From Dehalococcoidia bacterium (GTDB lineage Bacteria > Chloroflexota > Dehalococcoidia > Lucifugimonadales > UBA3495), in assembly GCA_965237775.1 (NCBI GenBank), contig OZ250155.1:17084-81083 (forward strand): DNA of 64,000 bases, read 5' to 3'. A program made the position numbers and the translations under genes. The notes under the pieces are model-generated. The model saw only the letters and a program-made list of their open reading frames with translations, did not search any database and was not told where the DNA came from. Below are positions 6,331 through 61,940 of the stretch, piece after piece. Each line of letters starts with the position of its first letter. Within the stretch, counting starts at the first letter, position 1.

Positions 6331-6530
6331 TTGAAATCGAAGCACTGCCGGACGGGCGCTTGCAGGGGTAAAGCCCTGCGTTGGACCTGTGCCTGCGGTA
6401 GGAGTCGGGCGAGCTGGTGTTCTATGCTTCGGCCACAGGGCGGCGCATCGCCTCCCTGGAAGATGAACGGGAGGCCCGCGCAGCCGCCGAAGCCCGTGTC
6501 CGCGAGTTGGAAGAGCAACTCTGCCGGTAA
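6331..6530 (+). pseudogene. 3' relic of a Uma2/DUF820-type endonuclease gene
   Basis: A single frame reads ...G*SPALDLCLR*ESGELVFYASATGRRIASLEDEREARAAAEARVRELEEQLCR*. This matches my recollection of the C-terminal pattern of Uma2 proteins, but it has two in-frame stops and no upstream body. Confidence 0.3.
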
Positions 6531-13983: not shown

Positions 13984-14329
13984 TGAACAAAGCCCGGCGC
14001 GATGCTATTGTCTCCGCACACCTAATAATTGACCATCATTGTAAGCTGGCCCGAGGCGAACTAAGGTAGGAACAAAACGTAGGAGAGGAGCGCGATGACC
14101 ATAGGACAACGGCTGCAGATGCAGACCCGGTCGATTCCCTCAGCTATAGCGTCTCCTAGTTACCACCATAGGGTAGCCGCCCTCGCTTCAAACCCACGCG
14201 CACGCAACCAGCGTTGCCATACGGTGGCCAGCGCATTGGACACCATCGAGCTTAGCTATCCATCACAGGCGCGCAAACTTCCCGTCAATTCAACTGCCGG
14301 TTAATCAAAGTCATCCACGAAGGACAATT

Positions 14330-44474: not shown

Positions 44475-44748
44475 CTGAGTGGGAAAGGCCGAATTGGACC
44501 GTAATCACACGGGCCTGGTGCTGCTTCTCCAGCAACAGTGATATGTCCTCAACCACGGGCGTCGCATTGACCGCCGCGCCCTCGACCTGCAAGTCGGCGC
44601 GGATGCCCTGAAGTTTCATCTGCTCCACCCGGCCAGCTTCGGCGCTGCTGAGCGGCCTGACCAACACGTCCTTCGGACCGTTGTGGGCCGAAAGGTCAAC
44701 GGGCTCCAGGTGGTTAATGCCGTTCAACAGCGCTTCCAGTTGTCCCAT
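44245..44748 (-). CDS. Putative tail assembly chaperone
   Basis: This 167-aa ORF lies between the gp10-like gene (TAATG overlap at 44748) and the tape measure gene. Its last 50 residues or so are low-complexity and probably not native. Confidence 0.5.
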   Translation of the reverse strand: MGQLEALLNGINHLEPVDLSAHNGPKDVLVRPLSSAEAGRVEQMKLQGIRADLQVEGAAVNATPVVEDISLLLEKQHQARVITVQFGLSHSGEECTYEQAGQMPAAWVEALARVVQRISGILDQEDTFRDGAGMGRVGQNGGHEDASDVSGRDTAREDAGGDDTAPA

Positions 44749-45206
44749 TAGATTCGCACTCCTGCGTTTCTGATTGAGCGGACCAGTATCTCCCTGGAGC
44801 GTTGCATCGCTTTCTCCGCGCCCCGGCGGTGGAACCCTATGTTGCGCCGCTCTTTTGCCGTCGAGGGGACCCGGCGGGCGGGTATATTTGCTTTCTTGGC
44901 GAACACCGTCTTACCGCCCACCTGGAACCGGAGGGCCTTGGCGCGGCGGGGACGGATGGTGTGGGCGCGGATCGTACCGCCCTCTGCCACCATGCGGATG
45001 TACCGGACGTTGTTCCCCACCACGCCTTTGAGAGTCGAGGGAGTGAATTTAGCGGTCCACGCGGCCCTGGAGCGGCCTGTGTCCACCGGGTTCTCTTTCT
45101 GGACCTGCCGCTTGATCTCCAGGGTCAGGTCACGCAGGCCCCGCTCTGCACCCCGGCGGATCCGCCGCTCCAGGTATTTAAGGTTGCCTCGTTGTTTGAC
45201 CGGCAT
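44748..45206 (-). CDS. HK97 gp10-family phage neck/tail-completion protein
   Basis: The 152-aa ORF contains LEIKRQVQKENPVDTGRSRAAWTAKF...GNNVRYIRMVAEGG, which fits the gp10-family pattern (aPvdTG.lr.s...v.Ya..vE.G). Confidence 0.7.
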   Translation of the reverse strand: MPVKQRGNLKYLERRIRRGAERGLRDLTLEIKRQVQKENPVDTGRSRAAWTAKFTPSTLKGVVGNNVRYIRMVAEGGTIRAHTIRPRRAKALRFQVGGKTVFAKKANIPARRVPSTAKERRNIGFHRRGAEKAMQRSREILVRSIRNAGVRI

Positions 45207-45261: not shown

Positions 45262-45930
45262 TCAGGGAACCGTGATCGTCTCGGTGACATACTCGCTTAT
45301 GCGCTCGTTCCCCTCGGAGTCCGTAATCCTCGTGGCGGCTTTCACCGTGAACGGACCGCTTTTGAAGGCCGGAGCGCTACCAGACACCCTCCCATCAACA
45401 ACGGATGAGGTGGTATGGGAGTAGACTCGCTGGGAGCCTTCCCGCATTTCATACCTGTACTCTGCGCCGTCTGGCGCGCCGGGCGGTACGTTGAAGGACC
45501 AATGTACTCTCTTAGAGCTCAGTAGACGGAGAGATAGATTCACTGGAGCAGGCAGAAGGGTCGAAAAGGCTTCGGACAGCATGTTGCTCGTGCGTTCCGA
45601 GTGATCCTCATCGACCGAAATTTGGGCCCCCCCCCCCGATCCATCTCCCGAATGCTCCTCTACCGTCACGCCAGACTTCACGGATACCGACGCCACGTAG
45701 CTCAGGCCGGGTTTTAATCCCTCAACCACCACAGGAGACACCACAGAGTACGTGGTGTTCACCGGAGACCCGTCGAGGGCCACCTGGACCTGGTAGCCAT
45801 AGCCTTCCGGTAGGGTTTCTGGACCCTTCCACCCGACGCTAACGGAGTCTTGTCCAGGTGCCAGACCCAAGTCAGATATCTGTACCGGCTGGCCGGTGAA
45901 ACTCTCACTGGTTAGCAATATCGTGTTCAT
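45262..45930 (-). CDS. Protein with two FN3/Ig-like domains (virion-associated candidate)
   Basis: The 222-aa ORF has two beta-sandwich-like halves (VSVGWKGPETLPEGYGYQVQV...GLKPGLSYVASVSV and VHWSFNVPPGAPDGAEYRYEM) joined by a linker encoded across a G11 run. Confidence 0.55.
   Translation of the reverse strand: MNTILLTSESFTGQPVQISDLGLAPGQDSVSVGWKGPETLPEGYGYQVQVALDGSPVNTTYSVVSPVVVEGLKPGLSYVASVSVKSGVTVEEHSGDGSGGGAQISVDEDHSERTSNMLSEAFSTLLPAPVNLSLRLLSSKRVHWSFNVPPGAPDGAEYRYEMREGSQRVYSHTTSSVVDGRVSGSAPAFKSGPFTVKAATRITDSEGNERISEYVTETITVP
45627..45637. repeat. C11 homopolymer (G11 on the coding strand) inside 45262..45930
   Basis: The sequence tttgggCCCCCCCCCCCgatcc is visible directly. It encodes the GSGGGA linker between the two FN3-like halves. 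Confidence 0.95.
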
Positions 45931-45999: not shown

Positions 46000-48804
46000 T
46001 TATGATCCGTAGTCCTCTTCCTCGTCGTCAGACCCCATGTCGTAGTCACCGTCATCGTCGTCACCACCGCCGCCGCTGCCACCGTTGTCCTCTTCCTCGT
46101 CGTCACCACCGCCGGACTCCTCATCCTCAAGGTCGTCGTCGTTCCCACTCCCGCCGGAGCCGGAGTCATCATCATCGTCTGCTCCTCCGCTAGCATCGCC
46201 TCCGGTGTCCTCCTCTTCGTCGTCACCACCACCACCGCCTCCGGCGTCCTCTTCCTCATCGTCCCCTCCGCCAGCATCGCCTCCGGTGTCCTCCTCTTCG
46301 TCATCCCCGCCGCCGGAGTCGTCATCGCCGGAGTCGTCGTCATCGTCGTCGTCGTACCCGTGACCGCCTCCCGAGCCAAAACTGGAGGAATCGCTGCTGG
46401 AGGAACTGCTGCTGGAAGAGCCTCCTCCGGCATCTTCCTCATCTTCGGTCTGGCCTCCAATGGTGCCCTCACCGGCTCCCCCGGAGCTGTCACCCGGAGG
46501 GTCAGCGGGGGTGGATCCGAACTCTCCCATCTCCTCCTGTAGCTGTTCCTCCATGCTGACTTGGGGGATGGCTTCCGGTTCCGGTTCCGGTTCGGGTTCG
46601 GGTTCGGGTTCGGGCGGTGGCGGGGGGTCATCATCACCGTTACCAGAGGGGGTCGCGGTGGTTCCTTCTCCAGGGGGGGTCGCGGTGGGTATATCGGGCG
46701 TCTCGGGGCCATTCGGTGGCTGGCCTTGCCCATCATCGTCGTCATCGTGAAACCCAGGGGTCTGTGGTGTCACCACCACGGCTCCCTGCGGTTGCTGCGC
46801 CACGGCTGCCGGAGGTAAAACTGGGGGCGTCACGACCGCCGGCTTAACCCCTACGTCCCCTTGAATGGACGCGAGAACCTCGACTTGTACATCAAGCTCC
46901 GCCGCAGTTTTGACCACTTCCTCGGTGTCGTCTTCAGCCTGCTCCAGCGCTTGCTCTGCTACTTGAGACAACTGCTGCGCCTGCTCGGCGTAATCGTCGG
47001 CTCGTTCCTGGGCCGCCTGCGCTACGGCTACATCACCCGAATCCTGGGCGGCCAGCGCCTCGTTCAAAGCGTCTTGAGCAAGAGTGCTGAGGTCTTGCGC
47101 CTGAGCCGACGCATCCACCGCGATCTGATGGGATTCGGCCACCTGATTGGTCAGCGCCTCGATACGCTCCGCCAGGTCCGAAATCTGAGTGGATACATGG
47201 GCTGCCTGGTCCGATAACGCCGCCAGTTCCCGAGCTTCATCCGCAGCCTGAATCGCATCCAGCGTGTCGTCTCCTGCCAGGGACTCGGCCCTCGCCGCCT
47301 CAGCCGCCTGTGTTGCAAGGTCAGAAATCGCTCGGGAATTGATTGCCGCTGCTGACGCCGCAATAGTGCTATCAACCACGATGCGAGCGGACTGGCTTAC
47401 CAACTGCGATGCTGCTTGGGCGTCATCACGAGTGGATTGGGCTGCTTCAGTGACGGTCTTAAAAGCCGCCTTCGCTTCGTCCGCAGACGCTTCCGCCGCG
47501 GTCTTCTTTTTGTCCTTTGGTTTCTCGGGGACCGGCACTACCCCCTTCTTCTTCTCTTTCGGTTTGACCATCGCAGGGGCGCTAGGCGTCCCGGTAGCGG
47601 CGACCCAACCACTCGCAGCCTCAAAGACTCCTGCTGGGTTGTAATACACCGCCCTCACCCGGACCTGGTAGGGGTCCGGCACCAAACCGGTAAGATTGTA
47701 AGCCTCGGTGTACACGTAAATCGGGGTTGCGGGAGTCCACTCCGTCCAGTCGGTGTCTCCGGTATCCGGGTTTTCTACGAGGAATTTGTACTGCATCTGG
47801 TAGACGTCGGTTGACGGGTTGAACGAGGCTGGCCGCACCCAGCCAATGAGTAGTTGTCCAGGGTTCAGGCCCGGGTACACCGCCAAGCTACCGGGCGCTT
47901 CGTAGGTCCTCGGCACTCCTGACGTGGGTGTGCCGTAGGCGTAGGCGTACAGGATGGGCGCGTCCACGTCCGGGTCTGCGTCGCCACAGACGGTCTTGGC
48001 TCTCACCTGGTGCCGCTCCGATCCCAATCCCTCCAGGATCAAACCGTTGCCGGTCACGGAGTATGGCGGCACGGGAAGCCAGCCGCTCCAGTGGTGTTCG
48101 CCGGTCTCGGGTATCTCGTGCTCGACCCGGTACTCCAGCTCGAAGTGGTCCTTGGCCGGGTCGAACCCCTCAGGGTCTGTCCATGTGGCCGAGAGTTGGC
48201 CGACGGTGCCAGTGGGCCTGGCCTGCATAGCGACGGGCGCCGGGCATGGCGCCACGGTCACGACCGGGGGCCGCGGGGTTACTCTTCCCGTAACCCACGG
48301 ACTCACCATCTCCACATTACCGTCTGCGTCGAAGCAGACTGTCCGCACTTGGATTTGGTGCTCTACGGTGGGAAGTCCGCGCACCGTGAAGCTCGTGCTG
48401 GTTGTCCGGGCTGCGGGATCGGGAGTCCAAGGGTCCCAATTCAGATCCCCGGTCTCCTGGTCTTCGGTGGCGCCCCGGTGCTGATACTCGAAGCTGTGTG
48501 TGTTCGGGTCGAAGCTCGGCGCCACCACCCAGGAAGACGTGAATCCGAACACCAATGCGGCCAGGCTGAGGTTTTCGGGAGGGTCGCATTGTGTGATAAC
48601 CGGCGCGCCAAGGGTCGCTCGTGCGTATACCTCCTCGCTCATGCCTTCTATATTGCCGTTGGAGTCGTAGCAAACGGTCCAAACCTTGAACAGGTAGGTG
48701 CCAGGGTCCATGCCAGTAAGGTGTTGGTCCGTGTCTCCAATGACCAGGGGAGTTTGGGGAATCCACTCGGTCCAATCCCCCGTTTCAGGGTCCCCTATTG
48801 CCAT
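46000..48804 (-). CDS. Giant-gene segment 3: FN3-like repeats, a coiled coil of about 250 aa, a Pro-rich region and a polyacidic Asp/Glu/Gly tail of about 190 aa
   Basis: The 934-aa ORF has recurrent FN3 signatures (FDPNTHSFEYQHR...ETGDLNWDPWTP; FDPAKDHFELEYR...ETGEHHWSGWLP; FNPSTDVYQMQYK...DTGDTDWTEWTP). An Ala/Gln/Glu-rich helix follows, then (PE)7, then a tail such as GGDDEEEDTGGDAGGGDDEEEDAGGG. Confidence 0.75.
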   Translation of the reverse strand: MAIGDPETGDWTEWIPQTPLVIGDTDQHLTGMDPGTYLFKVWTVCYDSNGNIEGMSEEVYARATLGAPVITQCDPPENLSLAALVFGFTSSWVVAPSFDPNTHSFEYQHRGATEDQETGDLNWDPWTPDPAARTTSTSFTVRGLPTVEHQIQVRTVCFDADGNVEMVSPWVTGRVTPRPPVVTVAPCPAPVAMQARPTGTVGQLSATWTDPEGFDPAKDHFELEYRVEHEIPETGEHHWSGWLPVPPYSVTGNGLILEGLGSERHQVRAKTVCGDADPDVDAPILYAYAYGTPTSGVPRTYEAPGSLAVYPGLNPGQLLIGWVRPASFNPSTDVYQMQYKFLVENPDTGDTDWTEWTPATPIYVYTEAYNLTGLVPDPYQVRVRAVYYNPAGVFEAASGWVAATGTPSAPAMVKPKEKKKGVVPVPEKPKDKKKTAAEASADEAKAAFKTVTEAAQSTRDDAQAASQLVSQSARIVVDSTIAASAAAINSRAISDLATQAAEAARAESLAGDDTLDAIQAADEARELAALSDQAAHVSTQISDLAERIEALTNQVAESHQIAVDASAQAQDLSTLAQDALNEALAAQDSGDVAVAQAAQERADDYAEQAQQLSQVAEQALEQAEDDTEEVVKTAAELDVQVEVLASIQGDVGVKPAVVTPPVLPPAAVAQQPQGAVVVTPQTPGFHDDDDDGQGQPPNGPETPDIPTATPPGEGTTATPSGNGDDDPPPPPEPEPEPEPEPEPEAIPQVSMEEQLQEEMGEFGSTPADPPGDSSGGAGEGTIGGQTEDEEDAGGGSSSSSSSSSDSSSFGSGGGHGYDDDDDDDSGDDDSGGGDDEEEDTGGDAGGGDDEEEDAGGGGGGDDEEEDTGGDASGGADDDDDSGSGGSGNDDDLEDEESGGGDDEEEDNGGSGGGGDDDDGDYDMGSDDEEEDYGS
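46573..46614. repeat. Hexanucleotide tandem repeat (ttccgg three times, ttcggg four times) encoding (PE)7
   Basis: The repeat is visible directly and lies within the giant-gene segment 46000..48804. Confidence 0.9.
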
Positions 48805-49451
48805 TGCGTACTCGAACAGGAACTGTGCTTGGAAGGGTCGAAGCCTTCAGGTTCATTGAAGGTGAGGACCAGCGTGCTGGGAGGCGAAACGGTGACCCCA
48901 AGGTTCTCGGGCGCGGGACAGGCATCGACAGTTGCAGGAGTTGCTGAGGCATCGACGGGAACGCTTCGGCAGACCTCAACACCCGCCTCATCGTGATAGA
49001 CCACCGCAACTCGAAACTCGTGGAGCACCGGGTCGAGCCCGTTGATGATGAGACCCTTACTGGTGACCACCCAGGATTCGACGGGCCACCAGGGCACTTC
49101 GTTCATCTCCTCGGCGACTGCATCCCATTCGATCTTCCTGGCCTGGACCTCGTAGTGGTGGCGTGCGGGGTCATGGTCTTCCGCATGGGTCCAGGCCAAT
49201 TGCAGTTGCCTAGCTTTCTTGGCGGGAAACGCCCGGAAGAACAGGGGTGCATGGAGCCTGGCCGTAAACTCTCCGGTGATGACACCGCTGTACAAGGGGT
49301 CGGTTCTCCAGGAGACATGCGACCTGGTGGCGACGCTGAACGTATAGGGAACGCAGGGGTCGAGGCCGTAGACCACTCCCGGAGGCACGGCGATAGTCTC
49401 TTCCTCTTGGGTATCGTCGTCCTGGTCTCGGTTGGTCTCCCAGAAAATCAC
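48795..49451 (-). CDS. Giant-gene segment 2: two FN3-like domains
   Basis: The 218-aa ORF ends with FDPSKHSSCSSTQWQ*. In the -1 frame the same DNA reads ...FLFEYAMAIGDPETGDWTEWIP, which completes the FN3 signature and runs into 46000..48804. Confidence 0.65.
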   Translation of the reverse strand: MIFWETNRDQDDDTQEEETIAVPPGVVYGLDPCVPYTFSVATRSHVSWRTDPLYSGVITGEFTARLHAPLFFRAFPAKKARQLQLAWTHAEDHDPARHHYEVQARKIEWDAVAEEMNEVPWWPVESWVVTSKGLIINGLDPVLHEFRVAVVYHDEAGVEVCRSVPVDASATPATVDACPAPENLGVTVSPPSTLVLTFNEPEGFDPSKHSSCSSTQWQ

Positions 49452-50401
49452 CCGGTAAGCCGAACCACTGGGCCGTTCGGAGGGGTGTCGAAGTCCACTA
49501 CGGCGGTGCCAGCGGCTCTGCCGGGCTTCAGGGTCAAGTTGCTGGGGTCGGGGATAAGACCCGTTAGGGTCAGGGTGAAATCGCCAGTCTCCTGTTCAAA
49601 CGTCGTCGCTTCGACTGTGTACATGCCCGGGTTCAGGTCGATGACCAGCCGGGAGTCGGTGAGTGAGCCACTGTCATCGTCGGACGCGATTATTGTTCCA
49701 GATTTACCGCGGCCTTCCAGAATGAAGACGTAGGGATTCTCTGCCGATTCCAGGTCCAGCCTAATCCGCGTCGGGTAGCTGAGCGAGAAGGCGAAATACC
49801 TGGCGTACATGCCAGAGCGGTTAACGGATAATAGGTCGGCACCATAGCTCCCTTCGCGGATCACCCGGTCACCCGCGTTCAGGACTCCAAGCCACTCGAT
49901 CTCATGGACGGGAGGCGCGTCGCCCGCGCCCGACACGTCCACCAGCACCGTTATCTCTTCGCCGGATTTCTCCGCGTTGGCCAGGGAGCGGCCGATGATG
50001 GGCTCATCGGCGGAGGTCGCTTTCTTGACCAGAGCAACGGGATGCCCCTTGAGAAACTTGGTCTCCATCGCGGGGGTCAAGGGGTCACCGATGGATACTG
50101 CTCCCGTTGCGCTGGCCTGCGCCAGACCCCGGACCACCAGTTGCACCGGGTCGTCTTTCCCGGTGCTCCGGTCGCCCAACGACTCGTCAGACTTGGTATG
50201 GACGATGCCGATGACGCGCCGAACGTCTACGCCCTCCTTCATTTTGAACAGCCGTGGCAAATTCAAAGAATTCGGGGCCTGCTGGATACCCAATACGTCT
50301 CCAGCAGCCAGAATCTCCCCTGCGCGGAAGTACTCGTCGATGATGATCCGGCGACCCTCAAACCCTTCACTTGTCAATACTGGTACTGGCACTTCTATCA
50401 C
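49448..50401 (-). CDS. Giant-gene segment 1: DUF2190-like beta-barrel, PPC (pre-peptidase C-terminal)-like domain, and the start of an FN3 domain
   Basis: The 317-aa ORF has a GTG start preceded by GAAGAAGAGG. Its N-terminal domain is paralogous to the C-terminal domains of the four protease genes (VPVLTSEGFEGRRIIIDEYFRAGEILAAGDVLGI...VIGIVHT...LVVRGLAQA...IGDPLTP...IIGRSL...ITVLVDV). The PPC-like part reads YFAFSLSYPTRIRLDLES...ASDDDSG...GMYTVEATTF...GDFTLTLTG. Confidence 0.7.
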   Translation of the reverse strand: MIEVPVPVLTSEGFEGRRIIIDEYFRAGEILAAGDVLGIQQAPNSLNLPRLFKMKEGVDVRRVIGIVHTKSDESLGDRSTGKDDPVQLVVRGLAQASATGAVSIGDPLTPAMETKFLKGHPVALVKKATSADEPIIGRSLANAEKSGEEITVLVDVSGAGDAPPVHEIEWLGVLNAGDRVIREGSYGADLLSVNRSGMYARYFAFSLSYPTRIRLDLESAENPYVFILEGRGKSGTIIASDDDSGSLTDSRLVIDLNPGMYTVEATTFEQETGDFTLTLTGLIPDPSNLTLKPGRAAGTAVVDFDTPPNGPVVRLTG

Positions 50402-50466: not shown

Positions 50467-51639
50467 CTATTGATTCCCTAGGCTTAGCGGGGTACCTGCT
50501 GCGTCTATTAGCAATTCGATATCCTGTCCAGGGCCCGTCGCGTTGGTGACGCTCCTTCCTAAGATCGGCTCATCTGTCCGAGTAGCTTTCTTGACTCTTG
50601 CGACGGGTTCTTTGTCCGGGTGTGCTTGAAGACTGCTATCCGGGGTCACTGGGTCTCCAACTCCTATGGGAGAGGCGGACATGCTCTTCGCCAGCCCGTG
50701 AACAACCACGGGTACCAAATGTGCCTTAGAGGCAATGAGGTCCCCTATAGCTTTATGGGCCGGAGTGTGGACGACCCCAATAACGCTATGAGACGCCGTT
50801 TTCCCGATGACCTTGAACACGGAGGGCTTGTTGGGCATGGATGGGTCCTCTCTGACGCCCACAACGTCCCCCGCGCTCAAGGGCTCTCCCGCGACGAAGT
50901 AGTCATTAACTATCACCCGCCGAGCACTAAGTGTGTCAGTGTGCCCTCGATAGCCGAACGTGATATCGAGTTCATGCTCAGCAACAGAAGCTGGCATTGC
51001 CCAGATTTCTCCTTTTTCGGGTATCCCGGCGAACGCAATGGCTGCTAATTGGTATACACCAGGAGCAGAAGCGTACAAGATTGGGGCTCCAGAATCGGTT
51101 TCTACCATTGGAGTTCCTAAGTCATCAACAACGACTACTCCCGTGTAAGCGACTTCTGCCGACTTTCCGGCGCCCCCAAACTGTGTATGAACGATCTCAC
51201 GTGATCCGGTTCGGAGGACTCGAACTGGTCTGACTCCAGTACCAACTCCCACCATGATCAAGGGCGTGTCTATTCCAGGTTCTTCTACCCCAGCGAGTAA
51301 CACTCCCAAGTCGTGGCCCTCGTTATGGATTTCATAGGAAGCGGTGATGCCCTCGTCCAGGGTGGCTATCCCGAAGTCCCCGATGTTGTCCTCCGTGGTT
51401 GACGCTGGAATCCAGTCGAAAATCATCCCCACACGGTTAGGGGATGACCCTACTGGCTGGAATAGCGGAGCAAGGTCATCCACATCCCACATCCCTGGGA
51501 CGCTCACCATTACATGAAGATTCGTGGTCAGAACCGGAGTTTGGTCTGAGTTCAGTGTTGCAATGGCGGTCAGAGTGCCACCATTGATGTTTGTGCCGGC
51601 CATTAGTGGCCTATGCGGCGTGTTTGGCTTAGCCATCAT
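50467..51639 (-). CDS. Cassette 1 protease: leaderless chymotrypsin-fold serine protease fused to a DUF2190-like C-terminal domain (390 aa)
   Basis: The N-terminus reads PHRPLMAG...GGTLTAIATL. The triad candidates are LTTNLHV (His), NIGDFGIATL (Asp) and ETDSGAPIL (Ser). The C-terminal domain reads AGDVVGV...VIGVVHTPA...LVPVVVHGLAKS...IGVGDPVTP...ILGRSV...IELLID. Confidence 0.75.
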   Translation of the reverse strand: MMAKPNTPHRPLMAGTNINGGTLTAIATLNSDQTPVLTTNLHVMVSVPGMWDVDDLAPLFQPVGSSPNRVGMIFDWIPASTTEDNIGDFGIATLDEGITASYEIHNEGHDLGVLLAGVEEPGIDTPLIMVGVGTGVRPVRVLRTGSREIVHTQFGGAGKSAEVAYTGVVVVDDLGTPMVETDSGAPILYASAPGVYQLAAIAFAGIPEKGEIWAMPASVAEHELDITFGYRGHTDTLSARRVIVNDYFVAGEPLSAGDVVGVREDPSMPNKPSVFKVIGKTASHSVIGVVHTPAHKAIGDLIASKAHLVPVVVHGLAKSMSASPIGVGDPVTPDSSLQAHPDKEPVARVKKATRTDEPILGRSVTNATGPGQDIELLIDAAGTPLSLGNQ

Positions 51640-51689: not shown

Positions 51690-52205
51690 TTAATAGTAGC
51701 GACCCATCGGTCTCTGGTGGATCTGTACCCTTACCCCGTCCAAGGTAGCAGGTACTCGTTGCTGCTCGGGTATCGAGCCATTGGAGACTTTCTCGGTGAC
51801 GGACAAAAGGATGCCGACTTCGTCCGAAAACTGCCCATCTCGGTCGTACAAGAACCAAACCGACAGCCCACTGGCATTAGGGTGGCTCAATAATCGAACT
51901 GCGTGCTTGTCCACGATAGGTTGAATTCTCTTTACATCTCTTCGGAAACGAAGCAGCTGGTCCGGGCTGAGTCTGTCCAGCTTGCTTGACATCGTTTCGA
52001 CCTGACTCGCATCATCGAAGAATTGGGCGTAAGAGGGGTCTCCACTTCCCTGGTCGAACTGATCCCGCTGACAGGCCAAAGTTACCGTCAGAACTGCTAG
52101 TGTCATCAACATAAACATGGTCCAGAGAACGGGCGGTAACCTCCTTCCTCGCACGATAGTCTGGATACCTTCAAACCCTTCGCTGGTCAGAACTGGGACC
52201 GTCAC
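51690..52205 (-). CDS. Cassette 1 lipoprotein with a pro-domain-like C-terminal block
   Basis: The signal and lipobox read MFMLMTLAVLTVTLAC|QRD. The C-terminal block reads HPNASGLSVWFLYDRDGQFSDEVGILLSVTEKV...RVPATLDGVRVQIHQRP. The first 12 codons (VPVLTSEGFEG) copy the DUF2190-domain junction motif. Confidence 0.65.
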   Translation of the reverse strand: MTVPVLTSEGFEGIQTIVRGRRLPPVLWTMFMLMTLAVLTVTLACQRDQFDQGSGDPSYAQFFDDASQVETMSSKLDRLSPDQLLRFRRDVKRIQPIVDKHAVRLLSHPNASGLSVWFLYDRDGQFSDEVGILLSVTEKVSNGSIPEQQRVPATLDGVRVQIHQRPMGRYY

Positions 52206-52272: not shown

Positions 52273-53496
52273 CTACCCTGCCGGCGGTGCGAATGTGGGC
52301 CCGGCGATGTCTACTATTACTTCGATTACCCGGCTGTCAGCGTCTTCTCCAGTTACCCCAGAAGAAACGCAACGGCCTACGATGGGCTCGCTTATGGAAG
52401 TAGCCGTCTTCACTCTGAACGGGGTATCGGTGTCTAGGTCCTTGCTGGGCATATCAGGGGTGACGGCATCCCCGGGTTCAACGTCGTTCGAGGCCCTCGT
52501 CTTGGCGATGCCCTGGACCACCACCGGAACGAGGGCCGTCGCCTTGGCAACCAAGTCCCCAACGCTTTTGGTCCGGGGCGTGTGGTCTATACCGATGAGC
52601 ATGTGCGGCGCGGTCTCCGAGTCCATCCTGAATAAAGCTGGGTCATCGTCCGACTCCGAGACGGGATTGATGCCTACGACGTCACCGGCCATCAGGTCCT
52701 CACCAGCTTTGAAGTAATCGTCGATGATGAACCTGCGCCCCAGAAATCCTTCTTGGTTGAGAAGTGGAAGACCCAGGTTCCGGGGGTTCCTCTCCAGAAG
52801 GATGGAGTTATCACCGAAGAAGAACTCCAGCTCGGATTCTGCAATATGAGCGGAAAGGCCAAAGCCGATGCCCAGGGCAAGATTGGAGGCAAATACAACT
52901 CCGCACATACGGAATATGCCGGGGCTGTCCTCATATAAGATCGGAGCACCGGAATCCCCACGCACCAATGGACGGTCGTGCGGCAGAACAATCATTACTG
53001 GATACCAGTCGTAACCCTGAAAAGAAAAACCTTGGTTGATGAAGAAAACAGTACCCCGTTGAACACCTGATATTGCTCCCAATATGTGAACGGTCATGCC
53101 CACTCGCGGTGGTATGGACGCGGAGACGATCATCCCTAGATCGTGGGCAGGATTGTGAGCCTCAAATTCAGCGTCTACTCCAGATTCCAGTTCCAACACC
53201 GCCAGGTCCACCGAGTTGGTTACGCCGACAGACACCGGAGCCGAATCGTACATCCGGGCCACTAGATGGTCCGCGATGTCCCGGTCATTTTGGTACATCT
53301 CTTCTGTACGAGTGCGGGCGAACGTAGCCACGGTCACTACGTGAAGGCAGGTGGCCAAGAGTGGGTTGTTGGTTCGCCTGCTGGTCCCTAGCCCGGACAA
53401 GGTTCCAAACGCATTCCTGGTACGAATGCCCGGCGTCTTGACCTCGACGTAGAGACCCGCCATGAGAGGACGGTGCCAAGATTGTCTTTCAGTCAT
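52273..53496 (-). CDS. Cassette 2 protease: leaderless chymotrypsin-fold serine protease fused to a DUF2190-like domain (407 aa)
   Basis: The N-terminus reads WHRPLMAG...FGTLSGL. The triad candidates are LATCLHVV, SVDLAVLEL and RGDSGAPIL. The junction motif reads LPLLNQEGFLGRRFIIDDYFKAGEDLMAGDVVGI, followed by LIGIDHTP, LVPVVVQGIAK and IVGRCV. Confidence 0.8.
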   Translation of the reverse strand: MTERQSWHRPLMAGLYVEVKTPGIRTRNAFGTLSGLGTSRRTNNPLLATCLHVVTVATFARTRTEEMYQNDRDIADHLVARMYDSAPVSVGVTNSVDLAVLELESGVDAEFEAHNPAHDLGMIVSASIPPRVGMTVHILGAISGVQRGTVFFINQGFSFQGYDWYPVMIVLPHDRPLVRGDSGAPILYEDSPGIFRMCGVVFASNLALGIGFGLSAHIAESELEFFFGDNSILLERNPRNLGLPLLNQEGFLGRRFIIDDYFKAGEDLMAGDVVGINPVSESDDDPALFRMDSETAPHMLIGIDHTPRTKSVGDLVAKATALVPVVVQGIAKTRASNDVEPGDAVTPDMPSKDLDTDTPFRVKTATSISEPIVGRCVSSGVTGEDADSRVIEVIVDIAGPTFAPPAG

Positions 53497-53525
53497 TGTG
53501 TGTCTGAATCCTCCTAAGGAACGGG

Positions 53526-54080
53526 TTATCCTGGAGAGTTCGCTGTGACGTTGAATTCAACGTCGTTCGGTACTTCGAGAATCTGGATTCTCACACCATC
53601 GATTGACTCAGGAATCCGGTCGATCTCAGGGAGGTCTTCCTGGAGGACCAATTGAGTGACCCAAATCACGATACCGATTTGTTCAGTGTATTCACCGTTT
53701 TGATCTTGCAGGAACCCTACGCCAACTGACCACATATTGGGTTGGCGTCGGAACAGGCCGGAATGCTTCTTGCGCACGGCGCTAGCCTTATCGGCCGCTG
53801 GCTGGTACTTGAGCCAACTGGGTTCTGATTCCGTCATCGAACTCCTCTCCGGTCGCTGATTCTTGGTGGAGGTAATCCGTTCGGTGGGGTCTTGGTCCTG
53901 GATAGCAGGCGCCAAGGGGACTTCGGCAGGTGCCTGGCCGCTCTCGGGCGATTCGGTACTACACGCCAGTAGCAGTAAGCACACCGAGGCCAGAACGATC
54001 AGTAGCCACCACCTTCCGATACTCAGTGTGGAATCCATCCTCTCCTCCTCCATTTGGGTCCCCGTCTTGTCTGGATACAC
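53526..54080 (-). CDS. Cassette 2 lipoprotein with a pro-domain-like C-terminal block
   Basis: The signal and lipobox read RWWLLIVLASVCLLLLAC|STE. The C-terminal block reads QPNMWSVGVGFLQDQNGEYTEQIGIVIWVTQLV...RIPESIDGVRIQILEVP. The start is probably an internal ATG such as 54038. Confidence 0.7.
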   Translation of the reverse strand: MYPDKTGTQMEEERMDSTLSIGRWWLLIVLASVCLLLLACSTESPESGQAPAEVPLAPAIQDQDPTERITSTKNQRPERSSMTESEPSWLKYQPAADKASAVRKKHSGLFRRQPNMWSVGVGFLQDQNGEYTEQIGIVIWVTQLVLQEDLPEIDRIPESIDGVRIQILEVPNDVEFNVTANSPG

Positions 54081-54139: not shown

Positions 54140-55387
54140 CTACGATTGGGATGGCGCGTGACCCGCGCCGGAGATGTCCACCAGCACGTCAATCACGCGG
54201 TTTTCCTTCTCCTCGTCTGCGCCACGAGCCGACACACAGCGGCCGATGATGGGGTCGTTGGCGGATCTGGCGGTCTTCACCCTGGACGGAGCGTCGGCAG
54301 CCAGTGGTTCCGTGGGCATCTCAGGGGTGACCGAGTCCCCAACTCCGATGTCGTCAGAGGCTCGCGCCTTGGCGATTCCGTGTACCACTACCGGCACAAG
54401 GTCGGGAGAGGAGGCAACGCGGTCCCCCACTTGCTTTCCTGCCGGAGTGTGGACTATGCCGATGAGCATGTGCGGCTCCATGTCCGAGTCCATCTTGAAT
54501 AGTGCGGGGTCATCGTCCGACTCTGAGACGGGATTGATGCCTACGACGTCACCGGCCATCAGGTCTTCACCTGCCTTGAAATGGTCGTCGATGATCAACT
54601 TTCTCCCGGCGAACCCTTCGCTGGTTAAGATTGGAATTCCTTCGTTGCCCACCCCGACCGTCGGGTCTCCGAAGGTGATGTCAAGCTCTTGTTCGATGAT
54701 GGAGGCTTTAACTGCGGCGCCGGTGGGCAATAGGGGGTGTTCAGTTACATGGAGTCCCACCATGTGGAATTCGCCGGGGGAGGACTCGAGAAGCAGAGGG
54801 GCTCCAGAATCACCCGGTTCAGATTCAGGGCTCCCATCAACCGGCCTTGTTATAAACACGTTATAAAAGATTTGGAGCCCCGGTGCTGTAACAAAGTGTG
54901 TTGCAACCACGACTACATTGGACGGCCCTGTGACGGCTCCCAGGCGTAAGAGCCGCATACGAGAAGTGGGTTCTCGAACGCCTGCCAATATCCTTCCAGG
55001 AGTGTGGTCATCCGGATTTCCTCCCAGGTGACGGTGCGGCACAAGACTTGGGGTTACCGAGTCCGACAGCGTTATCGCAGCAGCTTCAGCCTCATGAAGT
55101 GATACTGGCACCGGGCCGAGGTCTGCCGGAGTCCACCGGACAGGATTTCCGATTCTCTGGTTGGACCTCCGAGGTGTCCCTTGATGGACTTCTGCCTCCT
55201 TCGTAACGTCGAAGGAACCCGACTTAGCTACAACATGGGCAGCGGTCACAGCGACGCGTTCTCCACCAGGATGAAGAGTGGCAATTCCGGTGAGAGTCCC
55301 CGATTGAATAACCTCGGAATCTGGGTACTTGGAGTAGATCGCCAATCCTGCCATCAACTCCTCGTGCTCAAGACTTCTCCAGGGCAT
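54140..55387 (-). CDS. Cassette 3 protease: leaderless chymotrypsin-fold serine protease fused to a DUF2190-like domain (415 aa)
   Basis: I chose the ATG at 55387 (MPWRSLEHEELMAG...SGTLTGIATL). The motifs are VTAAHVV (His) and PGDSGAPLL (Ser); the Asp position is unclear (EAAAITL). The junction motif reads IPILTSEGFAGRKLIIDDHFKAGEDLMAGDVVGI. The N-terminal 78 codons of the 493-aa track ORF are an Arg/Trp-rich overprint of the upstream gene. Confidence 0.75.
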   Translation of the reverse strand: MPWRSLEHEELMAGLAIYSKYPDSEVIQSGTLTGIATLHPGGERVAVTAAHVVAKSGSFDVTKEAEVHQGTPRRSNQRIGNPVRWTPADLGPVPVSLHEAEAAAITLSDSVTPSLVPHRHLGGNPDDHTPGRILAGVREPTSRMRLLRLGAVTGPSNVVVVATHFVTAPGLQIFYNVFITRPVDGSPESEPGDSGAPLLLESSPGEFHMVGLHVTEHPLLPTGAAVKASIIEQELDITFGDPTVGVGNEGIPILTSEGFAGRKLIIDDHFKAGEDLMAGDVVGINPVSESDDDPALFKMDSDMEPHMLIGIVHTPAGKQVGDRVASSPDLVPVVVHGIAKARASDDIGVGDSVTPEMPTEPLAADAPSRVKTARSANDPIIGRCVSARGADEEKENRVIDVLVDISGAGHAPSQS

Positions 55388-55389
55388 GG

Positions 55390-55607
55390 CTACCTCCAGG
55401 GGTCGTGTTCGATGATCTGGACCTTGACCCCATCCAAGACTGCCGGGATTCGGTCTTCCGTCGGCAAAGTTTCTTGATCGACCTTCTCGGTGACGAATAT
55501 CAGAATTCCAACCTCTCCAACGTAGTTGCCGTTCTCGTCGACCAGCAACCCAACGGCACCACCGTTGAAGTTCGGCTGCCGACCAAAGAGTTGGAGGTGC
55601 CGCTCTA
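55390..55607 (-). pseudogene. Cassette 3 lipoprotein, 3' part (split by an IS427-group element)
   Basis: The reverse-strand translation reads ERHLQLFGRQPNFNGGAVGLLVDENGNYVGEVGILIFVTEKVDQETLPTEDRIPAVLDGVKVQIIEHDPWR*. It joins in frame to 56451..56690 when the IS and one TA are removed. Confidence 0.75.
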
Positions 55608-56450
55608 GGGCGTGTCGTCAAAACAGGAACAAGATGGTAGATTATTTCGGAGAGTGTGAGTGTGTGGAGTTGAAGTATGGCGGCAGCGCATCGGCGTCAC
55701 GACCTTTCGGACAAGGTTTGGGAACAATTGAGACCTTACTTGCCTGGTGGAGCAGGCAAAAGGGGGCGTCCAGCCCGGGATAACCGGCTTTTCTTGAACG
55801 CGGTGTTTTGGATCCTGCGTACTGGGGCGCCCTGGCGGGACCTGCCGCCGGATTACGGGGACTGGAAGAACACCCATAGACGCTTTTGCCGGTGGCGAGA
55901 CCGCGGTGTCTGGGACCAACTGCTGGAGCGGGTCATCGAAGATCCGGACTTTGAGTGGTTGATGGTCGACGCAAGCCACATCAAGGTTCACCCTCATGGC
56001 ACTGGGGCCCGGGGAGGCAATCAAGCCATAGGCCGCACAAAAGGGGGCTAAACAGCAAACTGCACCTGGCGGTGGACTCCCACGGCATGCCGGTACGTAT
56101 GATCTTGACCGAGGGTACGGTGGCGGATTGCACGCAGGCTCATTCGCTGATCGCCGACATCCCAGCTGAATATCTGCTGGCAGACCGAGGCTACCACACC
56201 AACGGCATCGTGGCCGAAGCCGAGGGCCAGGGGATGGAACCGGTGATACCACCCAGGAGCCATCGCAAGGAACAACGGTACTACGACCGGGCACTGTACA
56301 AACTGCGGCACTTGGTCGAGAACTCATTCCTGGACTTCAAGCAATGGCGGGGGGTTGCCACCCGATATGCCAAAAACGCAGCGTCTTTCCTGGCAATTTG
56401 CCAAATCCGAGCGCTGGTCATCTGGACCAAGTTATTTTGACGACACCCCC
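55608..56450 (+). mobile_element. IS5-family (IS427-group) insertion sequence, 843 bp
   Basis: The terminal inverted repeats are GGGCGTGTCGTCAAAA (55608-) and ttttgacgacaccccc (-56450). A TA direct repeat flanks the element at 55606-55607 and 56451-56452. It carries two overlapping transposase ORFs. Confidence 0.85.
55677..56440 (+). CDS. IS427-group transposase, orfA (55677..56051) and orfB (to 56440), joined by a -1 frameshift at A4G5 (56039-56047)
   Basis: OrfA reads HDLSDKVWEQLRPYLPG...RDNRLFLNAVFWILRTGAPWRDLP. Slipping -1 on A-AAA-GGG-G gives ...AIGRTKGGLNSKLHLAVDSHG, then LLADRGY and LRHLVENSFLDFKQWRGVATRYAK. Confidence 0.85.
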
Positions 56451-56690
56451 TAATACTGCTACCGCGCGTTCCTCTGTTTTCTTGTGATACCCAGGGTATG
56501 GCTCGGTAGGGATGGGAGAGTTAGGGTTGATGCCCATTTTGGAACCTCCTGTCTCTGCTGTTGGCTCAACATTTTCCAGGGTTGAATCTGGCTTGCTAGA
56601 GTCGTTGGGCTCCTTCGAGCAACCCAAAGCCGGTAAGAGCAGAAGTATCACCACGACGAACGCGAGAGGTATCCCCCGAATCTTCAACAT
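56451..56690 (-). pseudogene. Cassette 3 lipoprotein, 5' part
   Basis: It reads MLKIRGIPLAFVVVILLLLPALGC|SKEPNDSS...YHKKTEERAVAVL. The track ORF 56418..56690 then reads into the IS end. Confidence 0.75.
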
Positions 56691-56795: not shown

Positions 56796-57365
56796 CTACT
56801 GCCGGGATGGGGTATGGCCTGCATCCGCGATGTCCACCAGCACTTCAATGTCTTGGTCGGCGCCGGGGGTCACCGTAAGGCACCGGCCCACAATCAGGTC
56901 AGTGCTGGCAGTAGCGGTCTCCACCCGAGAAACGGTCGCGGAATCGTTGTGCTCGTAGGGGGTCACGCTGTCACCCACGCCGATGGCCGCGGCGGACTTG
57001 GCTTTCGCTACCCCCTGGATCACGATGGGGACCAGTTGACCATCCGACGCAATATCATCCCCGACCGACTTCGCCGACGGGGTATGGACTATGCCGATGA
57101 CCCGCCAGTCGTCCATCGTTGAGGTCATCTTGTAGACCTTCGGATCGCTGCCATCCGCCTTGATGCCTACCACGTCGCCAGCCAGGAGCTCTTCCCCGGC
57201 GGTGAAGTAGTCATCGACGATCAACCGTTGTCCTACGAAACCTTCGCTGGTTAGAATCGGAATTCCCATCTCTGCTTCACTCCTTGCAAAACTGACATTG
57301 AGAGCCTTTTCGATTACCGTTGCGGTGGAGACGCAAGCGGTCTCGCCCGAGTCTCCCCACACCAT
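56796..57365 (-). CDS. Cassette 4 remnant: intact DUF2190-like domain preceded by only the tail of a protease domain
   Basis: The 189-aa ORF starts MVWGDSGETACVSTATVIEKALNVSFA, which parallels GDSGAP...ELDITFG of the full copies. It continues MGIPILTSEGFVGQRLIVDDYF...VIGIVHTPS...LVPIVIQGVAKA...IVGRCL...IEVLVDI. No His or Asp region is present. Confidence 0.55.
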   Translation of the reverse strand: MVWGDSGETACVSTATVIEKALNVSFARSEAEMGIPILTSEGFVGQRLIVDDYFTAGEELLAGDVVGIKADGSDPKVYKMTSTMDDWRVIGIVHTPSAKSVGDDIASDGQLVPIVIQGVAKAKSAAAIGVGDSVTPYEHNDSATVSRVETATASTDLIVGRCLTVTPGADQDIEVLVDIADAGHTPSRQ

Positions 57366-57637
57366 CCCAGTTCCGCCGCCTCCATGACCGTCAACCCTGG
57401 GGTCATTCGCCGGTGTGCCTGGCCCATCGCAGACAGGAGCCGGGGGACACTACCTTCCTGGACATCGACGCGGATACCGTCGATGGTGCGCGGCACTAAA
57501 CCAAAGCCAAGGTGGAATCTACATTTGTGGGGCGATGAAGATTGACTTGGGTGCCCAGGGAAGCTCTTGCTCCTGTGTCTGGAGAGCGATCCGGTGCCGC
57601 CGATTGACTTCCTCCATACGCGTATTTCACCTTGGTA

Positions 57638-57874
57638 TTAGTTTAGGTCCTCGGTGGCCAGGCCGGACTCAGGGACCTCTTGGCTAACGAGGACTTGCAG
57701 GCCGGTCTCGCCGGTCTTGTGACCGGCCTCGTAGACTAAGCCCACGCCGACGCCAACGACGTCCTCCCTGGAAAGGAGATCGGCGGCGTGCCGGGCCTTG
57801 AAGCCGCGGACTTCAGAGATATGTGGAGAAACTGCGGCCAAGTCGATTACTCCTCCATTCTTGCTTGTAACCAC
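57638..57874 (-). pseudogene. Cassette 4 pro-domain-like fragment without a signal peptide
   Basis: The 78-aa ORF reads ...LLSREDVVGVGVGLVYEAGHKTGETGLQVLVSQEVPE and ends prematurely. The expected continuation (PRTIDGIRVDVQEGS) lies downstream in ORF 57314..57496. Confidence 0.5.
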
Positions 57875-60084: not shown

Positions 60085-61940
60085 CCTAGAAGTCTGGCCG
60101 GAAACTGTCCATTTTGATGCCAGGGGTTATACTCCGGGGTATCAAAGATAGCGGAGCAAGGGAATGCTGGGAGAGCGATCGGATCAGAGGGGCTTCTGGG
60201 AGGCGGACCGGCTGTATCTGGACCACGTGGGTAAGGACACTTTCTACGGCCTGTTGGCATCGTTGAGAGGCCAACTATTCCGGGACTCCGACTTCGCCGA
60301 GTTCTACTGCGCCGACAACGGCCGGGACAGCGTGCCGCCCAGCCTGCTGGCCACGGCGCTGCTGCTGCAGACCCACGACAAGGTGAGCGACGCCGAGGCC
60401 AAGGCCAGAGCCGACTTCGACATCCGCTGGAAAGTGGCGTTGGGAATTGAGGTGGAGGACAGGCCCTTCGCCAAGAGCACGCTCCAGGTGTTCCGCGCCC
60501 AGTTGATTCTCCACGACAAGGTGCGGGCGGTGTTCGAGTCCAGCCTGCGGCTGGCCCGGGAGTCGGGCTACCTAAAAAAGCGCGGCATGCGGGTGGCGCT
60601 GGACACCACGAACATCCTGGGGCGGGGCGCCGTGAGGGACACCTTCAACCTGCTGGCGGACGGGATTGTGAAGCTGCTGCGGGCGCTGGCAGCCGTGGAG
60701 AGGTCCAATGTCAAAGGATGGGCCGAGGCCCAGGGGTACGGGCGGTACCTTGCATCCAGCATCAAGGGAGAGTCGGCCATCGACTGGTCCGACAAGGGGG
60801 CACGGGCGGGGTTGCTGGCCACGATTGTGGCTGACGCCGACCGTCTGTTGGAAGCAGGGCGGCAGGCGCAGGAGGCTCTGCCGGAGGGCAGCCCTGAGCG
60901 GCAGGGCATCGTCGCGGCGGCGGAGTTGCTGGGGCAGTTGCTGCTCCAGGATGTGGAGCGCACCGGCGACGGTATTGGTCTCAAGGACGGGGTGAGCAAG
61001 GACCGGATGGTGTCGGTGCATGACCCGGAGATGCGCCACGGCCACAAGAGCAGCAGCCGTCGCTTCGACGGGCACAAGGCGGCGATTGTGGTGGACACCG
61101 ATACCCAGCTCATTACTGCTGTGGAAGTATTGCCCGGCAACGCTCCGGACAACCTGGGGGCCTTGGAACTGGTGGAACGGAGCGAGGCCAATACCGGTGT
61201 GCCGGTGGAGGAGGCGCTGGGCGATGCCGCTTATGGCGACGGCGATACCAGGCAGGCCTTCGCCGACGCGGGACGGACCCTGATTGCCCGGGTGCCGGGC
61301 CGTCCGAACCGGAAACACTTCCCGAAGGATGACTTCCGGATTGACCTGGCGGCGGGAACCTGCACCTGTCCGGCGGGTCAGGTCACCCGGAAGCTGCTGC
61401 CGGCGGGGAAGCGGACCGGTTCCACGGGACGGACTCACCGGCTGCAAGCCTTCCGGTTCGATGCGGCGGTGTGCGGAGCCTGCCCGCTGCGCTCTCAATG
61501 CGTGGCCGGGTCATCGGGATTGGGGCGAACGGTCCAACTGCACCCGCAGGAGGCTTTGTTGCAGCAGGCCCGGGCCCTGCAGCAGAGCGAAGCCTTTGCC
61601 GGGTATTGTCAACGCCGGGTGGTGGTGGAGCACCGGCTGGCCCGGCTGGTGCAGCTGGGGATTCGCCAGGCCCGCTACTTCGGTCGGACCAAAACCCGGT
61701 TCCAGCTGTACCTGGCAGCCACGGTGGCCAACCTGACCCTGCTGGCGGGCAAAACCGGTTTGACAGGCGATATTGGTGGCGCTGCCATCGGCTACCGTGA
61801 CGCCTGGGCCGGCGCCGACAGTGCTACAGCAACATTTGGTGCAATCCGGCTCGGTCTGATTTGGCCGCTGGCGTTGCTGACGCCGGCCTTTCTGCCTAAA
61901 GCCCTCTTCTCAACCAAGGCTTTTCATCCGCATTTCTAGG
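60085..61940 (+). mobile_element. IS1182/IS5-superfamily insertion sequence, copy C, 1856 bp
   Basis: It has the same ends and internal ORFs as copies A and B. It is inserted between the convergent genes 59677..60084 and 61936..63165. Confidence 0.9.
60164..61939 (+). CDS. IS1182/IS5-like DDE transposase (591 aa)
   Basis: Its translation is identical to those of the other two copies. Confidence 0.9.
   Translation: MLGERSDQRGFWEADRLYLDHVGKDTFYGLLASLRGQLFRDSDFAEFYCADNGRDSVPPSLLATALLLQTHDKVSDAEAKARADFDIRWKVALGIEVEDRPFAKSTLQVFRAQLILHDKVRAVFESSLRLARESGYLKKRGMRVALDTTNILGRGAVRDTFNLLADGIVKLLRALAAVERSNVKGWAEAQGYGRYLASSIKGESAIDWSDKGARAGLLATIVADADRLLEAGRQAQEALPEGSPERQGIVAAAELLGQLLLQDVERTGDGIGLKDGVSKDRMVSVHDPEMRHGHKSSSRRFDGHKAAIVVDTDTQLITAVEVLPGNAPDNLGALELVERSEANTGVPVEEALGDAAYGDGDTRQAFADAGRTLIARVPGRPNRKHFPKDDFRIDLAAGTCTCPAGQVTRKLLPAGKRTGSTGRTHRLQAFRFDAAVCGACPLRSQCVAGSSGLGRTVQLHPQEALLQQARALQQSEAFAGYCQRRVVVEHRLARLVQLGIRQARYFGRTKTRFQLYLAATVANLTLLAGKTGLTGDIGGAAIGYRDAWAGADSATATFGAIRLGLIWPLALLTPAFLPKALFSTKAFHPHF

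Follow-up and report, generated by a model that had tools for sequence, protein, structure and literature searches.

The 64,000-nt stretch of Dehalococcoidia contig OZ250155.1 analysed here (assembly GCA_965237775.1, positions 17,084 to 81,083; the window) carries serine-protease modules that, to judge by their sequences, are of the type of rice NARROW LEAF 1 (NAL1) and are split into two translationally independent genes per unit. The upstream gene encodes a predicted lipoprotein whose C-terminal part of about 85 amino acids forms one domain (N-dom). The downstream gene encodes a leaderless protease, in which the catalytic domain is fused to a C-terminal domain of about 160 amino acids (CDOM). 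The anatomy of the units and the homology of their parts are solid, and the mechanism is not. We tentatively favour, at somewhat less than an even chance, a mechanism in which N-dom, anchored at the cell surface, would bind incoming protease domains and render them harmless.

Anatomy of the split units

Four related units, U1 to U4, occupy the region from about 50.4 to 57.9 kb of the window, all in minus-strand orientation. Their parts, with the open reading frames (ORFs), hidden Markov models (HMMs) and other means by which they were placed, are as follows.

53526-54080, minus strand: U2 lipoprotein gene, ORF
53526-54038, minus strand: U2 lipoprotein gene read from MDSTLS (170 amino acids), an ORF identical to database protein P0005 with the same ATG start
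53961-54038, minus strand: U2 predicted signal peptide with lipobox (MDSTLSIGRWWLLIVLASVCLLLLA before the Cys; pattern and hydrophobicity scan)
53556-53807, minus strand: U2 N-dom, the NAL1_N or 'ABD'-like domain of the lipoprotein (local HMM E = 7e-37; phrog_20754, Pfam NAL1_N)
52273-53496, minus strand: U2 leaderless protease gene (407 amino acids; S1 catalytic domain and C-terminal CDOM; ORF, homologues)
52810-53496, minus strand: U2 catalytic domain (amino acids 1-229; His52, Asp97, Ser182; AlphaFold2, Foldseek, triad alignment columns)
52300-52773, minus strand: U2 CDOM (amino acids 242-399), beginning with PLLNQEGF, a variant of the PILTSEGF motif (local HMM)
51690-52205, minus strand: U1 lipoprotein gene (171 amino acids as a GTG ORF; lipobox VTLAC; N-dom at amino acids 87-170; ORF, HMM, lipobox pattern)
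50467-51639, minus strand: U1 leaderless protease-CDOM gene (390 amino acids; ORF, HMM)
54140-55387, minus strand: U3 leaderless protease-CDOM gene (415 amino acids, the same as P0003; Glu for the catalytic Asp; ORF, HMM)
55390-55605, minus strand: U3 lipoprotein gene, 3' part (N-dom; ORF, HMM)
55606-56452, plus strand: insertion sequence (IS) inside the U3 lipoprotein gene (18-nt inverted repeats; transposase ORFs 55677-56440)
56453-56690, minus strand: U3 lipoprotein gene, 5' part (signal peptide, lipobox PALGC)
56796-57874, minus strand: U4, a degraded leaderless single-chain unit (ORFs, HMM)
46000-50401, minus strand: CDOM-FN3 giant, three ORFs in the window, sharing CDOM and the PVLTSEGF start with the protease genes

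The true start of the U2 lipoprotein is probably MDSTLS at 54038, as in P0005, and GGAGGAGGAGAGG stands just 5' of this ATG. Shine-Dalgarno (SD)-like sequences were found 5' of the start codon in both U2 genes and in the U1 protease gene; the AGGAGGA of the U2 protease gene lies 11 nt before its ATG. The ORFs and the gaps between lipoprotein and protease genes are as an earlier, sequence-only reading of the region gave them: 29 nt in U2, 50 nt in U1 and 2 nt in U3, where the stop is at 55390 and the protease ATG at 55387.

That reading also described the halves as separate ORFs in every cassette and counted three intact units. The halves are indeed separate in U1, U2 and U3. U4 departs from this and belongs to the leaderless single-chain type: it has no signal, and its N-dom passes directly into the protease start AHRRMTPGL, after which an internal deletion and frameshifts are followed by a CDOM ORF (56796-57365). 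The unshifted reading of U4 is found as P0079 in another assembly, and the same remnant occurs in a sister element (L002, see below). U3 cannot be counted as intact, because an IS interrupts its lipoprotein gene. This IS has inverted repeats at 55606-55623 and 56435-56452, a two-ORF transposase and a TA duplication. With the IS excised from the sequence together with one TA, the frame is restored exactly and a single ORF of about 148 amino acids appears, containing the signal peptide and N-dom.

Signal calls rest on pattern and hydropathy. The features sought in a lipoprotein were a charged n-region, a hydrophobic h-region and a lipobox ([LVI][ASTVI][GAS]C) within about 15-35 amino acids of the start. 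All three show a positively charged start and a hydrophobic stretch, and the lipoboxes are LLLAC in U2 (at amino acid 26 of P0005), VTLAC in U1 and PALGC in U3. The window proteases begin M-x6-HRPLMAG, without a hydrophobic stretch. When leaderless members of the family were scanned for hydrophobicity, no transmembrane-like segment was found anywhere in them. An export signal is thus predicted on the lipoprotein and none in the protease, as had been proposed, and the same scan gave no sign of a cryptic signal in the proteases. Across the family, a loose pattern found a lipobox in 46 of 58 N-dom leaders, and most of the remaining leaders resemble signal anchors. About 100 of the top 150 N-dom relatives are small proteins with a signal or lipoprotein leader.

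Two other topologies were considered. Tat hitch-hiking was judged unlikely, as the leaders had no twin-arginine motif on inspection, and a tail-anchored protease was rejected for want of a hydrophobic segment. The puzzle of an exported half and a signal-less half is eased in the window, though not for the family at large, because the genes sit in the virion module of a prophage, whose proteins need no signal.

Homology of the two halves

N-dom is homologous to the N-terminal region of single-chain proteases. The phrog_20754 'protease' was matched by 9 of 10 N-dom copies, at positions 13-78 of 324 (best 1e-8). Pfam NAL1_N was matched by 6 of 10 (best 6.5e-4, all under the gathering score). A ten-copy N-dom profile was compared with the PDB, and its nine best matches were all rice NAL1 (E about 0.04), at residues 114-157 of the full-length chain. 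An HMMER search of 1.84 billion representatives gave 1,125 N-dom relatives (cluster representatives) at E<=1e-3, so that many small proteins hitherto without a name can now be given a domain. Five relatives (P0054, P0056, P0129, P0070, P0132) are single chains, in which N-dom is followed after 10-20 amino acids by HRPxxxG...GTLTGLA...TNLHV...GDSGAP. Their protease is of the same subtype as that of the window (local HMM E 1e-42 to 1e-59). Two more proteins, P0153 and P0110, are of the classical single-chain type (GVGIG...IP..L.GV..DV...RP..PPG...GTFG...SNNHV).

The architecture that the sequence-only reading had given for single-chain relatives fits P0153 and P0110, and its proposal that the C-terminal domain of the lipoprotein is homologous to their N-terminal region is borne out by phrog_20754, NAL1_N, NAL1 itself and the five single-chain relatives. 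Alignment with single-chain homologues puts the break point exactly at their domain boundary. Its term 'pro-domain-like' is not supported. None of the 10 N-dom copies matched the alpha-lytic pro-region family in Pfam at E<=1, and the corresponding module of NAL1, the ABD, is an uncleaved ATP-binding and trimer module. The ABD (amino acids 89-172) consists of four strands and a curved helix, with ATP held between two loops (PMC12012508). It contacts the protease domain of the neighbouring subunit and not its own, and in this way builds the trimer, burying 1,991 A2 (PMC12012508). It is required for trimer formation, stability and activity, and no cleaved pro-peptide is described (PMC12012508). 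Because the ABD clamps the protease domain of a neighbour, N-dom can plausibly bind a protease domain as a separate polypeptide, by analogy with NAL1.

The most conserved N-dom motif, VTEKVDQ..LP.EDRIP, aligns with the NAL1 ATP-binding loop (K139, V140; alignments A1, A4, A5). The Lys aligned to K139 is kept in U1 and U3, and U2 has Leu in its place. Conceivably, the loop binds some extracellular ligand.

The U2 protease has, in its model, a chymotrypsin-fold catalytic domain with His-Asp-Ser. AlphaFold2 gave a predicted local distance difference test (pLDDT) score of about 85-95 across amino acids 1-233. With this model, Foldseek found NAL1 and the streptogrisin/alpha-lytic proteases equally well (E about 1e-10; TM-score about 0.8 over the target for the latter). 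A 22-sequence protease-domain profile had NAL1 as its best PDB match (1.2e-3), collinear at the His and Ser motifs. Catalytic His52 and Ser182 are invariant in 22 of 22 diverged proteases (25-41% identity to U2) and Asp97 is present in 21 of 22. The exception is the U3 protease (54140-55387), with Glu in place of the catalytic Asp that the other 21 sequences in the alignment share. The units differ from the NAL1 type in that the two domains are not on one polypeptide: they are encoded by separate ORFs, the downstream one with its own SD sequence and ATG, in frames that vary across loci.

CDOM, which is fused to the catalytic domains in the window, also heads the adjoining giant FN3 protein. 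It had been labelled DUF2190; that label found no support, as no Pfam family, DUF2190 (PF09956) included, was matched at E<=1. A weak match was obtained to phrog_673 'head scaffolding protein' (6 of 7 copies, best 6e-6). AlphaFold2 gave CDOM a pLDDT of about 30 even with a 20-row alignment, and tblastn against 50,697 phage records found nothing. The giant is a single 1607-residue ORF in the sister element (L002:13573-18396), and its tail is very acidic and rich in Asp, Glu and Gly; the copy in the window is broken into ORFs of 317, 218 and 934 amino acids, either by frameshift mutations or by sequencing errors. A relative of the protease outside any prophage, P0004, adds collagen repeats that match tail-fibre PHROGs. 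CDOM may be a virion-attachment or trimerising module.

The motif P(I/V)LTSEGF opens every CDOM and also opens a 222-residue FN3 protein without CDOM. A further copy, with similar upstream sequence, precedes the signal peptide of the U1 lipoprotein and has the look of a scar left by recombination. Sites of the motif, this copy included, are at 52173-52196, 50360-50383, 45898-45921, 54611-54634 and 57237-57260. Anchoring to the virion is a possible role of this peptide.

The split in other genomes and the prophage setting

We scanned one genome per species with a narrow N-dom alignment (A5), which biases the resulting loci towards one subfamily. The scan gave 23 loci, all in Dehalococcoidia metagenome-assembled genomes (MAGs). 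With three local HMMs run on all ORFs, at least 14 of the 23 were found to have an N-dom gene directly followed by a leaderless protease gene. The same layout was present in independent gene calls of further metagenome contigs (L027, L028, L029). The split genes are tightly spaced or overlap by 1-14 nt, and leaderless proteases of the family always start M-x6-HRP, seven residues ahead of HRP. Four combinations of signal and fusion were seen: one chain without a leader (P0054 and others), one chain as a lipoprotein (L016:5821-7779), two genes with a lipoprotein N-dom and a leaderless protease (most cases), and two genes with no leader on either half (L028:5691-6014 with 6001-7320). The split had been suggested to predate the local duplications and to be maintained. 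Both suggestions are supported by these data, the former through the recurrence of the two-gene layout and the latter through the conserved start, the SD sequences of the genes and the invariant catalytic His and Ser. No description of the split was found in the literature searched on NAL1 and its bacterial relatives.

Across loci, the frame of the protease relative to the upstream stop is 0, 1 or 2, and the in-frame cases hold further stops. A single recoding mechanism was ruled out by these mixed relations. It is very improbable that each unit is one ORF after all, the stop having arisen in assembly or being passed over through frameshifting or read-through. The protease does stand in the same relative frame (+2) in all three window units, which would suit such a bypass. 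Against it, the relation varies between loci, the split recurs in independent assemblies from different samples, and the downstream gene has its own SD sequence and ATG. The stops are thus not assembly errors.

N-dom genes also occur in arrays, and as many as 4 domains may follow each other in tandem; some of these loci have no protease gene. In the 23 loci, 55 N-doms were full and 8 partial, compared with 15 full and 15 partial protease ORFs, counts which are biased, since N-dom was the criterion for picking loci and a long gene is more prone to be broken in a MAG. Because N-doms are mostly full and half of the protease ORFs are partial, these numbers suggest that the lipoprotein has value without its neighbouring protease gene. 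The protease C-termini in these loci are PKD/K319L-like, Big_9, PPC or FN3 domains. The neighbours are housekeeping genes, transposases and GH99-like genes, with no recurring phage family among them. Viral contigs scanned with the N-dom and protease-CDOM alignments gave no confirmed relative, and JGI metagenome contigs scanned with the protease-CDOM alignment gave none.

Two features of these proteins may be recorded here. Trp/Arg-rich repeats of about 35 amino acids, W(G)xWxDTGxT...RTSxxGNxxTRWV, are found at the C-termini of P0129, L020:6306-7670, L023:7028-8875 and L024:7064-9052; they resemble thrombospondin type-1 repeats without the cysteines. A GH99-like domain occurs in lipoproteins adjoining the N-dom/protease module in the non-phage locus L001 (5972-7027, 8263-9456). 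In the prophage relative L002:4341-5663 it has no signal and is fused to a C-terminus that resembles, by eye, a head-tail adaptor. The domain thereby repeats the theme of lipoprotein and leaderless forms seen with the protease.

The units of the window belong to a prophage in decay, where they are placed among the virion genes. Signs of decay are two kinds of IS, the degraded U4 and the broken FN3 gene. The other phage genes recognised are listed below.

34071-35285: integrase
39257-40363: HTH/Peptidase_M78 protein (ImmA/IrrE-like repressor)
42493-44172, minus strand: tape-measure protein
44748-45206, minus strand: HK97-gp10-like neck protein
61936-63165, minus strand: Phage_tube_2 protein (tail-tube-like)

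A sister element (L002/L003) shows 86-95% protein identity over the downstream genes and adds an S78 prohead protease (Peptidase_S78_2). The U1 protease is about 93-94% identical to the product of L002:12338-13507 (97% DNA identity), and the N-doms paired with these two proteases are only 57% identical. The signal-peptide region of U2 is 76% identical in DNA to L002 and the rest of the gene about 50%. Along the window, DNA identity to L002 rises from 47-76% upstream to 97-98% downstream, with a sharp recombination breakpoint at about 51.45-51.6 kb, near the U1 lipoprotein/protease junction and close to the start of the U1 protease. Because essentially the same U1 protease is paired with N-doms so different, the re-assorted partners argue, from sequence comparison, for a generic binding surface and not for lock-and-key immunity. 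Divergence of N-dom and protease is correlated (Mantel r=0.47; 0 of 2000 permutations reached it), and conservation averages 46.7% for the N-dom core, above the 40.6% of the protease.

Three copies of a transposase gene (591 amino acids; DDE_Tnp_1, DUF772) are 100% identical in DNA, at 20835-22610 (minus strand), 23512-25287 (plus strand) and 60164-61939 (plus strand). One of the three lies inside the prophage structural module. Their identity suggests that the element was recently active. Upstream of the prophage, a GmrSD-type restriction endonuclease gene and then an N6/N4 DNA methylase gene (11893-15325) lie amid IS66, IS110 and DDE_5 transposases, an arrangement suggestive of an island of defence genes and mobile elements. 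No defence system was matched with PADLOC, NCBIfam gave nothing useful, and a promoter and terminator scan was at chance level and uninformative.

Possible functions and known systems

According to the mechanism that we favour, the lipoprotein would be exported by the Sec/signal-peptidase II route and would display N-dom on the outer face of the cell membrane. The protease-CDOM protein would be made in the cytoplasm and would be attached to virions or released at lysis; it would need no signal because it would leave the cell in one of these ways. The displayed N-dom would then capture protease from superinfecting particles or from lysing sister cells. Capture would neutralise the protease and protect the cell surface, so that N-dom would not act as a cleaved pro-peptide. 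The trans-acting inhibition or immunity that the sequence-only reading had proposed is compatible with the data. As hints that N-dom has a part of its own, as binder or neutraliser, we count the N-dom arrays and repeats that at times lack a protease gene, the excess of full N-doms and the many small N-dom proteins with leaders. For the phage setting we count the phage genes in the window, the S78 protease of L002, the CDOM shared with the FN3 giant, and the collagen repeats of P0004. In a more general form, which we hold to be possible at lower probability, Dehalococcoidia would show a clamping or regulatory domain as a lipoprotein, a half-enzyme on the surface, and the signal-less catalytic half would travel on phage particles or in lysates. 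The halves would meet only outside the cell, as a recognition device serving immunity, capture, or a phage receptor-adhesin pair, and would differ in this from an ordinary enzyme with its pro-peptide.

Several points weigh against neutralisation, a mechanism that we infer. The lipoprotein genes are co-oriented and closely spaced with late structural genes and do not stand apart like a lysogenic-conversion gene. Unlike in typical toxin-immunity pairs, the pairing of partners is unspecific, as the re-assorted U1 protease indicates, and the N-dom core is the more conserved part. Most loci of the family have housekeeping neighbours and no phage genes, and virion delivery is therefore not the general answer. 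The lipoprotein single-chain form of L016 fits docking or activation better and suggests that some members are surface enzymes. The full and partial counts carry the bias described above. Finally, with IS insertions and a broken FN3 gene in the prophage, the units may no longer be functional.

Surface docking or assembly, the main rival, is a possible but less probable explanation. Here the lipoprotein would be the missing N-domain of the enzyme and would tether a released or secreted catalytic subunit to the membrane of the producing cell, building an active NAL1-like oligomer; lipoproteins with several N-doms would be scaffolds, each for more than one protease molecule. The requirement for the counterpart domain in the NAL1 trimer and in its stability and activity speaks for this (PMC12012508), as do the fused lipoprotein of L016, the tight spacing or overlap of the genes, and a conserved N-dom core whose divergence tracks the protease partner. 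The leaderless split pair of L028 is also in its favour, N-dom being possible there only as an enzyme subunit. However, no member has an export signal or transmembrane segment in its catalytic subunit; docking requires an outward route for this subunit, and none was found. If N-dom were an obligate subunit, one would hardly expect arrays of it that lack an intact protease gene. ATP, a structural ligand in NAL1, would ordinarily be unavailable outside the cell, and the Lys aligned with K139 is missing in U2.

It is unlikely that the units have no current function. They would then be relics in a dying prophage, and the family-wide split would have stranded the catalytic halves in the cytoplasm, where they decay. 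The interruption of the U3 lipoprotein gene by an IS, a further IS within the module, the degraded U4, the broken FN3 giant and the fragmentary state of half of the protease ORFs in other loci are what relics would show. This is countered by the near-complete conservation of the triad across diverged proteases, by long ORFs with intact C-terminal domains that persist in many species, by the conserved start position and SD sequences, and by a U1 protease that has stayed nearly unchanged between two otherwise mosaic prophages. A classical pro-domain acting in trans, both folding catalyst and temporary inhibitor like the alpha-lytic protease pro-region, is rather improbable. In its favour, the catalytic model is as close to alpha-lytic protease and the streptogrisins as to NAL1, these enzymes depend on a pro-region that also works in trans, and N-dom occupies the pro-region position in single-chain relatives. 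N-dom has no match to the alpha-lytic pro-region family, however, the one homologue that has been characterised, the ABD of NAL1, stays uncleaved and serves permanently in oligomerisation, and the two halves would be made on opposite sides of the membrane.

In N-dom, then, we have the partner domain, now detached, of a type of protease that has been known chiefly through a yield gene of rice, and the units appear to be a self-assembling protease that is naturally split, with its halves on the two sides of the membrane. One may ask how a signal-less protein with PKD, FN3 or collagen domains reaches a surface-anchored partner. Here, phage particles or lysis may be the route; if so, the units would concern surface protection or recognition between phages and uncultivated Chloroflexota. 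The annotation also changes: no evidence at present makes N-dom a pro-peptide, and DUF2190 is not recognisable in the C-terminal domain.

Rice NAL1 (PDB 8PMM, 8PME, 7Y77, 8HAS) is the best PDB sequence match of both halves. N-dom resembles part of its ABD region (amino acids 114-157), the catalytic domain resembles it at the His and Ser motifs, and the folds agree at E about 1e-10, although the sequences are only marginally similar (E 1e-3 to 4e-2). NAL1 consists of a single cytosolic chain that assembles into an ATP-stabilised trimer/hexamer cage, whereas each window unit consists of two genes with N-dom predicted to be exported as a lipoprotein. The units have no equivalent of NAL1 amino acids 1-88 and have CDOM added at the C-terminus. 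Also related are phrog_20754 and the single-chain relatives P0054, P0056, P0129 and P0070, with the same N-dom and, 10-20 amino acids later, the same HRPxxxG...GTLTG...HV...GDSG protease. These are single, mostly leaderless chains, with PKD-type domains at the C-terminus where the window proteins have CDOM.

Alpha-lytic protease and the streptogrisins (MEROPS S1E) have a like catalytic fold (TM-score about 0.8) and an equally placed N-terminal accessory domain. Their precursors are single secreted chains from which the pro-region is cleaved off, and this pro-region has no detectable homology with N-dom (Pfam, 10 copies). Like the units of the window, phage T5 has a lipoprotein gene, llp, beside the gene of a virion surface protein, its receptor-binding protein, and Llp probably works at the surface of the cell on particles that arrive or have been set free. 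Its target is the receptor of the host and not a virion protein, and no enzyme is involved; we know of no homology between Llp and N-dom. The Lactococcus lipoprotein PrtM with PrtP, the Pseudomonas foldase Lif with lipase, and the pro-peptide-like Spi of Streptococcus with SpeB are likewise encoded by accessory genes beside the gene of an enzyme. There, however, a signal peptide is present on the enzyme itself, Spi stays in the cytoplasm, and to our knowledge none of the three accessory proteins is homologous to N-dom. What they share with the window units is a separate, adjoining gene for a membrane-anchored maturation factor or a pro-peptide-like inhibitor.

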